DNA of 64,000 nucleotides from Halorarum halobium (GTDB lineage: Archaea > Halobacteriota > Halobacteria > Halobacteriales > Haloferacaceae), in NCBI RefSeq assembly GCF_032116555.1, contig NZ_CP134949.1, positions 1,798,001-1,862,000 of the forward strand. The letters run 5' to 3'. The notes beneath the pieces are model-generated. The model saw nothing but the letters and a program-made list of their open reading frames with translations, was not told the origin of the DNA and ran no database searches. Within the stretch, counting starts at the first letter, position 1; every line of letters begins with the position of its first letter. A program made the translations under genes and the position numbers. Positions 56,001-58,888 of the stretch are shown piece after piece.

Positions 56001-56477
56001 TTATGCACTGCCGAAGGCGTCGACGGGGGTCGGATCCGCGAGACGCTCCAGTTCGTCCGGTTTCAGGGGGAAGACGGCCTCCGGCGTCCCCGCCGCGGCC
56101 CAGACCTGGTCGTGAGCGAGCAACGACTCGTCGAGATACACCGGCACGCGCTCCTCGTGGAGGAACGGGGGGACGCCGCCGATGCTCCAGCCGGTCGCGG
56201 CCTTGACCTCGTCCGGGTTCGCGGTCCGGACGTCGTCGGAATCGAGTTCCGACGCCAGCCGTTCCTCCGAGACCCGGTTGTCGCCGGCGGTCAACACGAC
56301 CACGACGTCGTCGTCGGCCACGAACACGAGGCTCTTGACGATCTGTCCCACGTCACAGTCGATGGCGGCCGCCGCGTCGGCGGCGGTCTTCGTGCCCTCG
56401 GGGAACTCCTCGACCCGTACGTCGAACCCGAGTTCGTCGCTCGCCCGACTGGTGAATCGATCTGCGGTCGGATGCAT
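56001..56477 (-). CDS. YbaK/EbsC family aminoacyl-tRNA deacylase
   Basis: TKTAADAA, QIVKSLVF, TGWSIGGVPP, WAAAG. Confidence 0.92.
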   Translation of the reverse strand: MHPTADRFTSRASDELGFDVRVEEFPEGTKTAADAAAAIDCDVGQIVKSLVFVADDDVVVVLTAGDNRVSEERLASELDSDDVRTANPDEVKAATGWSIGGVPPFLHEERVPVYLDESLLAHDQVWAAAGTPEAVFPLKPDELERLADPTPVDAFGSA

Positions 56478-56570
56478 GGTCGGTGGAGGTCGTTTCGTGC
56501 CGAAATACCCGGCGGACACGGCAGGTACCGACCGCGGGGTTTAGGTTCCTCCTTCACCTTTCGTTACTCG

Positions 56571-56621
56571 ATGAACTGCTCCCCGACGCTTCCCATGCGT
56601 ATGCGAACGCACCCCTTCTAG
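56571..56621 (+). CDS. Putative leader peptide of metG, MNCSPTLPMRMRTHPF (16 aa)
   Basis: ATG 56571 to TAG 56621; TTTAGG box at 56540-56545; 3 Met codons. Confidence 0.55.
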   Translation: MNCSPTLPMRMRTHPF

Positions 56622-56770
56622 CGCCGAGCGGAGCGTCCGACCCCGACCGATCCCGACCGGATCCGACGGGTGAGTCGTGAACGCCGGCGTCCACGCACCG
56701 ACGACCGACCGACGGGCGAGGGGTTCGCCCGATTCGGCGGGCTTTAGGCCCGCATCCACGACACACGACC

Positions 56771-58888
56771 ATGAGCCACGAGGAGTTCCCGACGGACACG
56801 CCGGCGGTGGTTACCTGCGGGTTGCCGTACGCGAACGGCGACCTGCACATCGGCCACCTCCGCACGTACGTGGGCGGCGACGTCTACTCGCGCGCCCTCG
56901 AATCGCTCGGCCAGCGAACCACGTTCGTCTCGGGGTCCGACATGCACGGCACGCCCGTCGCGGTCAACGCCGAGAAGGCGGGCACGGATCCCGAGTCGTT
57001 CGCCCTGGACTGGCACGAGCAGTACGAGGAAACGTTCCCCCGCTTCGACGTCGAGTTCGACAACTACGGGCACACCCACGACGCGACGAACACCGACCTC
57101 ACGCGCGAGTTCGTGCGGACCCTCGAGGAGAACGGCCACGTCTACGAGAAGGAGATCAAGGTCGCCTACGACCCGGAGGCCGACCAGTCGCTTCCGGACC
57201 GCTACGTCGAGGGAACGTGCCCGTACTGCGGGGCGAAGGCGCGAGGCGACGAGTGCGACGAGGGCTGCGGCCGGCACCTCGAACCCGGCGAGGTCGAGAA
57301 CCCACGTTCGACGGTCACCGGCAACCCCGCGGAGTACCGCGACCAGACCCACAAGTTCTTCCGCGTCTCGGCGTTCAAGGAGTACCTCTCGGGCTTTCTT
57401 GACCGGCTCGAAGGGACCTCGAACGCGCGAAATCAGCCCCGCGAGTGGGTCGAGGGCGAGCTCCGGGACTGGTGTATCACCCGTGACATGGACTGGGGCA
57501 TCGACTACCCCGAGATCGAGGGCGAGGAGCCGACCGATCTGGTTCTCTACGTCTGGGTCGACGCGCCCATCGAGTACGTCTCCTCGACGAAGCAGTACTC
57601 CGAGCGCGTCGGCGCCGACGAGTACGACTGGGTCGAGGCCTGGCAGGAGGACGGCGAGATCGTCCACGTCATCGGGCGGGACATCATCCAGCACCACACC
57701 GTGTTCTGGCCCGCGATGTTGCACGGCGTCGACTACGACGAGCCGCGCGCCGTGATGGCCTCCGGGTTCATGACGCTCGACGGCGACGGGTTCTCCACGT
57801 CCCGGAACCGCGCGGTCTGGGCCCGCGAGTACCTCGAGGAGGGGTTCCACCCGGACCTGCTGCGCTACTACCTCGCCACGAACGGCGGGTTCCAGCAGGA
57901 CGTCGACTTCTCGTGGGAGAAGTTCCGCGACCGCGTGAACAACGAACTCGTCGGGACGGTGGGTAACTTCCTCTACCGCTCGCTGCTGTTTGCACACCGC
58001 AACTTCGACGGGACGCCCGACGCCGACGTGTCGCCCGAGGTCGAATCCCGCATCGAGGAAGCCGTCGACGAGTTCGCGGCCGGCGTCAACGACTACTCCG
58101 TGCGCGCGGTCGGCAACGCGACCGTCGAGCTCGCTCGCTTCGGCAACGAGTACATCCAGCGCGAGGAGCCCTGGAACCTCGTCGGTGAGGACGAGGAGGC
58201 CGCCGCCCAAGTGATCCGCGACTGCGTGCAGCTCGCCAGGGCGGTGGCGGTGCTGTTCGAGCCTGTCGCTCCCGGGAAGAGCCAGGAACTGTGGGAAAAG
58301 CTCGGCGAGGACGGCAGCGTTCACGAGGTTCCCGCGGACGCGGCCCTCGAGGCTCCGCCACGCGAGTTCGGCCACCCGGAGGAGCTGTACGAGAAGATCG
58401 AGGACGACCGCGTCGAGGAGCTGAACGAGAAGCTGGAGCGACGGGTCGCCGAAGCGGCGGGCGACGACGATGACGCCGAAAGCGACGGGGACGACGACGC
58501 CGGAACCGAAACCGATGAGGTGACCGCGTCCGGCGAAGCTGACGTGAGCGAGTTCGAACCGATCGAGTCCGACCGGATCAGCTTCGAGGAGTTCCAGGAG
58601 CTCGACCTCCGTGTCGGCGAGATCGTGAGCGCGGAGCCGATCCCCGACGCCGACAAGCTGGTCGCCCTTGCGGTCGACATCGGCGTCGAGACGCGGAACA
58701 TCGTCGCGGGCCTCAAGCAACTCCACGACGTCGAGGCGCTGGCGGGGACGCCGGTCGTCGTCGTCGCCAACCTGGAGAAGGCGGAGCTGTTCGGCCACGA
58801 GTCGAACGGCATGGTGCTCGCGGCGGGCGAGGACGCCGACCTCCTCACCACCCACGAGGACAGCGAACCGGGTACCCGCGTCCGATAG
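56771..58888 (+). CDS. metG: Methionine--tRNA ligase with C-terminal tRNA-binding domain
   Basis: LPYANGDLHIGH, DMHG, CPYC/CDEGC zinc knuckle, YVWVDAP, FSTSR, ESNGMVL. Confidence 0.97.
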   Translation: MSHEEFPTDTPAVVTCGLPYANGDLHIGHLRTYVGGDVYSRALESLGQRTTFVSGSDMHGTPVAVNAEKAGTDPESFALDWHEQYEETFPRFDVEFDNYGHTHDATNTDLTREFVRTLEENGHVYEKEIKVAYDPEADQSLPDRYVEGTCPYCGAKARGDECDEGCGRHLEPGEVENPRSTVTGNPAEYRDQTHKFFRVSAFKEYLSGFLDRLEGTSNARNQPREWVEGELRDWCITRDMDWGIDYPEIEGEEPTDLVLYVWVDAPIEYVSSTKQYSERVGADEYDWVEAWQEDGEIVHVIGRDIIQHHTVFWPAMLHGVDYDEPRAVMASGFMTLDGDGFSTSRNRAVWAREYLEEGFHPDLLRYYLATNGGFQQDVDFSWEKFRDRVNNELVGTVGNFLYRSLLFAHRNFDGTPDADVSPEVESRIEEAVDEFAAGVNDYSVRAVGNATVELARFGNEYIQREEPWNLVGEDEEAAAQVIRDCVQLARAVAVLFEPVAPGKSQELWEKLGEDGSVHEVPADAALEAPPREFGHPEELYEKIEDDRVEELNEKLERRVAEAAGDDDDAESDGDDDAGTETDEVTASGEADVSEFEPIESDRISFEEFQELDLRVGEIVSAEPIPDADKLVALAVDIGVETRNIVAGLKQLHDVEALAGTPVVVVANLEKAELFGHESNGMVLAAGEDADLLTTHEDSEPGTRVR

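Follow-up and report, generated by a model that had tools for sequence, protein, structure and literature searches.

Organization of the region upstream of metG

The window (the whole 64,000-nt stretch of DNA analysed) is haloarchaeal, judging from its gene content and its relatives. Ahead of metG, which encodes a methionine--tRNA ligase of 705 aa (profile cut-off 587 bits), it contains a leader that comprises an upstream open reading frame (uORF), a hairpin and two TATA-like elements (Table 1). The initial annotation of this region had proposed a methionine-rich leader peptide that feeds back on metG through four RNA arms, pairing either as 1:2 plus 3:4 or as 2:3. The sequence elements listed there are present: a TTTAGG box 31 nt ahead of the ATG that opens MNCSPTLPMRMRTHPF*, a 149-nt spacer between the uORF stop and metG in which CCGAC occurs six times, the four arms, and a second TTTAGG close to the gene. 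No tRNA or tmRNA was found within the window and no Rfam family at gathering level, and Rfam applied to 17 loci gave one weak unrelated match at E values up to 5.

The leader shares its intergenic region with a divergent gene for a YbaK/ProX-like tRNA deacylase. Linkage of this gene to metG was seen in the window's genus and at one other locus (L004), which has no leader; in most relatives the gene upstream of the leader is not a deacylase.

Table 1. Features of the metG upstream region (positions within the window).
Feature	Position	Strand	Basis or remark
Putative upstream promoter P1, TATA box TTTAGG	56540-56545	+	31 nt before ATG 56571; transcript start predicted at uORF start codon
Leaderless uORF, 16 codons (predicted ORF)	56571-56621	+	homologous uORFs of 12-29 codons at 72 loci
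Met-Arg-Met-Arg codons, likely sensing site	56595-56606	+	in-frame ATGs and Arg enrichment after Met among relatives
Conserved hairpin directly behind the uORF stop, with a basal helix and an internal GGA/GAA loop rich in purines	56622-56689	+	covariation; model match
Strands of the basal helix and GGA/GAA loop	56622-56635 and 56676-56689	+	covariation
Hairpin apex, diverged in the window's genus	56649-56663	+	comparison with relatives
Small hairpin (arms 1/2), genus-restricted, probably incidental	56713-56731	+	3 loci of genus g1 and one unrelated match among 135
Proximal element: second TATA (56743-56748) enclosed by a GCGGG/CCCGC palindrome	56737-56753	+	likely P2 for a leaderless metG mRNA; hairpin within the long transcript
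metG	56771-58888	+	NF001100, 823.7 bits
Divergent YbaK/ProX-like deacylase-family gene, neighbour outside the element	56001-56477	-	TIGR00011, E 3.6e-17, below curated cut-off

A methionine-codon uORF is conserved but patchily distributed

Strong matches to metG were found in 59 of 61 and 151 of 151 relatives searched. In about half of the first of these sets, the upstream DNA carried a TATA-like box, a GTG or ATG start, ATG-CGN codons, a TAG stop and a helix with the strands GG(U/C)GGAC and (C/U)GAA(A/C)C. We assembled 135 distinct metG loci, a mixed and partly motif-selected set, of which 72 passed a uORF filter once a false match without hairpin (L138) had been taken out. Five more leaders (L034, L035, L093, L123, L140) were evident by eye and were added for the counts of the proximal element and of leader presence or absence. 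Among the 90 loci chosen by metG alone, a sample biased against the leader, it was found in 33 and missing in 57. Overall, it was seen in at least 32 of the 63 haloarchaeal genera sampled, nine of which hold both states. The leader is thus widespread and patchy, a pattern that may reflect repeated loss.

The sequence of these uORFs bears out the proposal of a conserved methionine-codon leader peptide. TATA-to-start spacing is 29-31 nt in nearly all relatives (the start codon lies 22-33 nt after the best TATA at 57 of 59 motif-picked loci), and downstream ATGs are in frame with the start at 53 of 57 motif-picked loci (97 ATGs in frame, 10 out of frame). The uORFs range from 12 to 29 codons, begin with GTG (55) or ATG (17) and mostly end in TAG (64/72). 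Of 129 codons that come directly after a methionine, 108 encode arginine, and all four CGN codons are used; elsewhere in the uORFs arginine makes up 14%. The peptide is unconserved outside the Met-Arg codons. The initial annotation had counted three methionine codons in the window's uORF; the two internal ones (56595 and 56601) stand, and the start codon drops out of the count, since most relatives start with GTG. Two internal methionines occur in five of 120 TATA-linked candidate uORFs of the window's genome, and Met-Arg in the metG uORF only. We conclude that the leader is real, conserved and probably regulatory.

The ends of the uORFs vary. At several loci (L002, L010, L011, L097, L098, L099, L159, and also L034 and L035) the usual in-frame stop is missing and the frame ends at a TAA, TAG or TGA in the apical loop of the following hairpin, at a constant position; in seven of the 72 loci the ORF thus runs through the 5' strand of the hairpin. 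A U-rich Phe-stop end was considered as a site for FttA and dropped, as only 30 of 72 uORFs end in phenylalanine.

The conserved structure is a hairpin next to the uORF stop

The initial annotation took the four arms for the regulatory structure and missed a hairpin adjoining the uORF stop, which is the structure that is conserved. A pattern of TAG plus hairpin, holding neither methionine nor frame information, gave 25 matches in 185,579 GTDB genomes. Of these, 24 were haloarchaeal and all 24 precede metG, although, being mostly from Haloferax, the matches are not independent; 23 have a Met-Arg ORF in frame with the TAG, and in the 24th the ORF reads into the stem. The single match outside the halophiles (L062, Nitrosocosmicus) has neither uORF nor metG and was treated as chance. 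In an alignment of 25 relatives, pairing holds in 94% of the cells of the ten consensus pairs and 29 cells are compensatory, a compensation reached by none of 500 shuffles (slid controls, 31-50%), with the reservation that the consensus was drawn from the same alignment and that relatedness inflates such counts. In the window's genome, the stop-adjacent motif accompanies two of 120 TATA-linked intergenic uORF candidates, those of metG and pheS.

The window copy keeps the basal helix and the internal loop with compensating changes, and its apex has diverged. It scores 27.4 bits (E about 1e-4, filters off) against a model built without it, and it is thermodynamically modest (z -1.8); among six single hairpins, one had a z-score clearly below shuffles. 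Under filters, model R1 missed the window copy, including in a genome-wide search in which 150 of 13731 candidates were scored. Applied to 151 genomes, R1 placed 23 of its 25 best matches before metG, and the other two (L100, L108) looked like chance; the pheS hairpins described below were not detected by it. A strict uORF-plus-motif pattern gave five matches in 301 genomes of the phylum, all from Haloferacaceae-level kin, and since it misses even the window copy it is uninformative on methanogens. Three regex matches in the rRNA region of the window's genome did not have the same loop fold.

The hairpin is positioned relative to the methionine codons. The distance from the last of them to the GGA/GAA loop is 23-29 nt at 65 of 72 loci (median 26), with a standard deviation of 3.2 versus 4.7 for the distance from the stop. 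Apical loops are of the GUAAC/GUAGC type in 53 of 72 loci, and CGACC in the window. A U-CAU-purine apical loop with covarying stems occurs at 14 loci from six family-level groups (L019, L105, L116, L121, L132, L134, L137, L142, L144, L147, L153, L158, L166 and L170, and also L140), after removal of L139 and L157, where the match lay outside the loop. The tRNA-Met loops of the window's genome read CUCAUAA, and the U-CAU-purine loop may be a second, lineage-limited input that is absent from the window.

The proximal element is probably a second promoter

The pairing switch among the four arms was rejected. Arms 1/2 were confined to three loci of the window's own genus and one unrelated match among 135, and equilibrium folding of 67 loci, with the ribosome modelled at the last methionine codon versus the stop, revealed no consistent switch in arms 3/4 or in the accessibility of the metG AUG. 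Arms 3/4 had been read as an attenuator; they flank a TATA that is also kept at -29 in loci without a leader. Among loci with a leader, 74 of 77 have this proximal TATA at the modal position of -29 relative to the metG ATG, and among those without one, 48 of 58 do; the spacing of GCGGG-TTTA-CCCGC is that of a leaderless promoter. A folding energy of -4 kcal/mol or better was obtained for the palindrome at 71 of 74 loci with a leader versus 31 of 48 without, a contrast confounded by kinship. A U run sits in the palindrome loop at promoter spacing, and none follows a stem. The initial annotation had itself cautioned that the second TTTAGG could be metG's own promoter (P2), which is probably right; the leader is not displaced by this, as both elements are kept together. 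Given the genus-restricted arms 1/2 and the lack of a ribosome-dependent switch in arms 3/4 or AUG accessibility, the architecture is P1, then the uORF with its hairpin, a spacer whose length varies (from stop to ATG, about 135 to 283 nt across loci), and finally P2 and the gene, and not that of a trp-style attenuator.

Leader presence was also compared with SD-like motifs upstream of the P2 start, which would be usable on the long transcript only. In four of the nine genera with both states, these motifs are clearly stronger in leader-bearing species; in genera g40, g51, g68 and g77 (e.g., L158 vs L151 and L097 vs L165), a GGAGG-type motif before metG is weakened in leader-lacking congeners. 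Overall SD strength did not differ between leader-bearing and leader-lacking loci (median -3.0 vs -2.95), and no SD-like motif was seen before metG in the window's genome. Going by the title of a cited paper, Haloferax volcanii reportedly makes no use of SD initiation.

Related leaders precede other synthetase genes

A TATA-linked, phenylalanine-rich uORF followed by the same GGA/GAA loop precedes pheS, at five of five loci and then at 25 of 30, and the last phenylalanine codon lies a median of 23 nt from the loop (19 loci measured). The pheS leader of the window's genome lies outside the window (G000:C1:105014-105160, L180/L239) and consists of the uORF MAREPAIDRTVPQPTTGGFAFFFRRA and a hairpin with the GGA/GAA loop. 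The pheS genes also have an analogous proximal promoter-like element, with or without a leader, and their hairpins show no conserved Phe anticodon. The hairpin common to the Met and Phe leaders is an RNA motif absent from Rfam 15, and it points to an interacting partner or to a new way of steering archaeal termination.

Trp-Arg-Trp uORFs precede a second trpS at three of four loci (L186, L187, L193) and Val-Val-Arg uORFs precede valS at two of five (L216, L218), the loop not being evident in either case. Arginine beside the cognate codon recurs across the trpS and valS uORFs, and one thrS (L196) is preceded by a TATA-linked 13-codon uORF with one threonine. No such leader was found at the ala, arg, leu, his, tyr, ser, pro and ile genes in three to five genomes each. 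Table 2 of PMC4983044 lists the uORFs before pheS (HVO_2948) and trpS (HVO_A0127) as small proteins; neither cognate codons nor regulation are mentioned there, and the metG uORF is absent from the table. The HVO_2948 uORF is the sister element of the metG uORF. The uORF amino acid thus matches the enzyme, Met before metG and Phe before pheS, and that it follows the synthetase is the strongest argument for the sensing of charged tRNA.

RNA data from Haloferax volcanii

A Ribo-seq table (PMC10117724) prints the same leader peptide with its end at 729608 and the start of metG (HVO_0809) at 729463, which places the uORF GTG at 729658. The only upstream start of HVO_0809 in Table S1 of PMC4983044 is 729658, with a 195-nt leader and enrichment in one of three replicates; no start is given there at the metG ATG and none was mapped at P2. 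The first base of the transcript is therefore the G of the uORF GTG, in agreement with the start proposed for the leader transcript. The pheS transcript likewise starts on its uORF ATG, with a 212-nt leader (PMC4983044). The 16-codon ORF was not called among the rows listed of the Ribo-seq table of PMC10117724 or in the supplement of PMC7261190; the former paper remarks that some 5' sORFs generally recall leader peptides.

A termination site in rich medium was mapped to 729465, 2 nt before the metG ATG, and assigned by its authors to the upstream gene (PMC7237163). This source lists no 3' end near the metG hairpin (positions 7295xx) and no termination site in the pheS leader. The end at -2 has the same position as the predicted P2 start, and no U-rich tract is present there. 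Other 3' ends in H. volcanii likewise coincide with, or adjoin, start sites downstream (729657 vs 729658, and 2783352 vs 2783343, besides 729465), which reflects either promoter collisions or a library effect, and the metG 3' end may therefore be a collision, a processing product or an artefact. A processing-type 5' end was reported 10 nt before the pheS ATG (PMC8303175); processing sites cluster near start codons generally.

At locus L043, raw sense-strand reads run without a gap from the leader across the junction into metG, and no sharp ends were called in either run. In run X23, depth climbed at the uORF start, from 5-16 upstream to 33-141 across the leader, dipped to 61-82 at the ATG and came to 99-223 over the 260 nt of metG that follow; in run X24 transcription reads through from the upstream gene, and depth dips at the ATG as well (481-503). 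Depth did not fall from leader to gene in either run (growth conditions not stated). Both runs also had small fragment-end clusters below the detection threshold (L043:1643 and 1565); one of these lies immediately behind the GGA loop strand, the other 20 nt beyond the hairpin. Logan contigs X5 and X14 were uninformative on RNA ends. Uncharged Met-tRNA leads to pauses at A-site AUG codons in H. volcanii, and the ribosomal A site lies 11 nt from the footprint 3' end (PMC7261190). As this species carries the element and offers genetics, mapped RNA ends and a published Met-tRNA-uncharging condition, the use of ribosome-coupled attenuation by archaea becomes directly testable, in the first place from existing data.

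A probable methionyl-tRNA sensor and its possible outputs

The metG leader is probably a sensor of charged Met-tRNA that acts through ribosome stalling. Among its possible outputs we favour, at about even odds, a read-through of the P1 transcript that depends on stalling and adds to a basal supply from P2. A ribosome would initiate at the first base of the transcript and, if stalled with a methionine codon in the A site, would cover about 11-13 nt downstream and leave the hairpin base free; a ribosome at the stop, or one reading into the stem (as in the seven loci above), would melt the base. The intact hairpin would favour read-through past the end point near -2, probably because a partner binds the GGA/GAA loop or because the RNA is shielded from the aCPSF1/FttA termination nuclease, so that under scarcity of Met-tRNA the long transcript would run on into metG. 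P2 would give a basal metG level, and loss of the leader in some lineages would be understandable on that account. Several observations sit uneasily with such read-through: the uORF calls missing from the Ribo-seq sources, the lack of a U-rich terminator and of a conserved alternative pairing, read depth that does not drop from leader to gene but dips at the ATG and then rises, an ambiguous 3' end, the variable spacer, the many metG-picked loci without leader, and SD strength that is equal overall, with no SD motif in the window's genome and no SD initiation in H. volcanii according to the paper title cited above.

The same sensor could have the opposite effect on the P1 transcript. With Met-tRNA plentiful, P1 transcription would cross and silence P2, ending near its start, and upon stalling the hairpin would form, the P1 transcript would end early and P2 would make a leaderless metG mRNA. 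Retention of P2 at -29 in nearly all leader-bearing loci, the proximal element of pheS, the lack of a mapped P2 start in H. volcanii, the 3' end coinciding with the predicted P2 start and the rise in depth after the dip at the ATG fit such interference, as does the proposal that FttA acts on RNA uncoupled from ribosomes (PMC11616081). We nevertheless think it rather unlikely, because reads cover the leader-gene junction continuously, leader-bearing species of four genera have SD-like motifs ahead of the P2 start and no 3' end is listed near the hairpin. The undiminished RNA depth would also suit an output after transcription, in which the position of the ribosome decides whether the hairpin promotes leader cleavage that yields a leaderless mRNA, the stability of the mRNA, or re-initiation at metG. 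The processing-type end before pheS (PMC8303175) and mycobacterial leaderless Cys uORFs that act at translation (10.1101/834739) point the same way; the generality of processing sites near start codons and the absence of a conserved change in AUG accessibility make this quite improbable. Read-through, promoter interference and post-transcriptional control have the sensor in common, and each predicts induction on Met-tRNA shortage.

Two further explanations would demote the uORF. An independent small RNA or small protein gene might merely lie beside a metG that has its own promoter: P2 suffices where the leader is absent, and the published ends agree with a discrete RNA that spans 729658 to 729465. 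Yet the peptide is not conserved beyond its Met-Arg codons, all 24 haloarchaeal motif matches precede metG although the gene further upstream changes, and the enriched amino acid follows the synthetase, so we hold this to be very unlikely. The hairpin might instead be bound mainly by MetRS as a mimic of the tRNA-Met anticodon, with the uORF secondary, as ThrRS binds at E. coli thrS; anticodon mimicry of this sort has been described for ThrRS and for HisRS of yeast (PMC6542539), and the 14 U-CAU-purine loops resemble CUCAUAA of tRNA-Met. With GUAAC/GUAGC-type loops predominating, CGACC in the window and no conserved Phe anticodon before pheS, we would be much surprised if this were the main function.

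Returning to the ribosome-read sensor, we tentatively extend it to a haloarchaeal regulon, with somewhat more doubt than belief. It would comprise metG, pheS and probably trpS and valS, and in it a leaderless cognate-codon uORF would toggle a shared GGA/GAA-loop hairpin that controls either aCPSF1/FttA-type termination or tandem-promoter occlusion, with no bacterial-style terminator and with the tRNA-Met anticodon mimic added in some lineages.

Comparison with known systems

Leader-peptide transcription attenuators are known from E. coli pheM-pheST and from trp, his, thr and leu. The metG leader resembles them in having a short cognate-codon uORF before a tRNA-synthetase gene, carried on the gene's own transcript, and in that RNA folding would depend on ribosome position. 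It differs in being archaeal, in its leaderless uORF, in lacking a hairpin-plus-U terminator and a conserved antiterminator pairing (mutually exclusive pairing was not found by equilibrium folding of 67 loci), in the single hairpin with a GGA/GAA loop common to Met and Phe leaders, and in the second promoter at the gene start.

The mycobacterial polycysteine attenuators (10.1101/834739) are alike in some respects, with a leaderless uORF that begins at the first base of the transcript, sensing through cognate codons and one logic at several loci; leaderless uORFs are indicated here by the H. volcanii starts on the metG and pheS uORF start codons and by the TATA spacing of 29-31 nt. In the mycobacterial case, stalling of the ribosome prevents formation of a duplex by which the downstream ribosome-binding site would be hidden (10.1101/834739), whereas stalling on the metG leader would leave the hairpin formed. 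No duplex hiding the downstream initiation site is conserved at metG.

Leaders of the tnaC type rely on Rho-dependent control. That no terminator is seen at metG would be in keeping with termination by a factor and not by an intrinsic signal, and aCPSF1/FttA is the archaeal counterpart of Rho-type control (PMC11616081). Unlike tnaC, the metG leader encodes no arrest peptide conserved beyond Met-Arg, the role of FttA is putative and the mapped end has no U-rich tract. The E. coli metG leader reportedly contains a tRNA-like element. The operator of E. coli thrS and the yeast HisRS mimic (PMC6542539) have their parallel in the anticodon-like U-CAU-R loop of 14 loci, but this loop is absent from most loci, including the window, and lies far from the start codon. 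A T-box riboswitch also precedes synthetase genes, and GGUGGA superficially resembles the T-box sequence; this identity was rejected, there being no Rfam match, the segment pairing inside its own hairpin and reading GCGGA in the window, and a cognate-codon ORF standing in place of the specifier loop.

Searches of the open-access literature turned up no account of an archaeal synthetase gene controlled by a leader peptide, no main-text mention of HVO_0809 and no described case of ribosome-coupled attenuation in archaea, which would be a corollary of archaeal transcription-translation coupling. The metG leader fails the terminator and alternative-pairing tests of classical attenuators but probably works like a leader-peptide sensor, and the regulon reading, if true, would represent amino-acid attenuation built on archaeal machinery.
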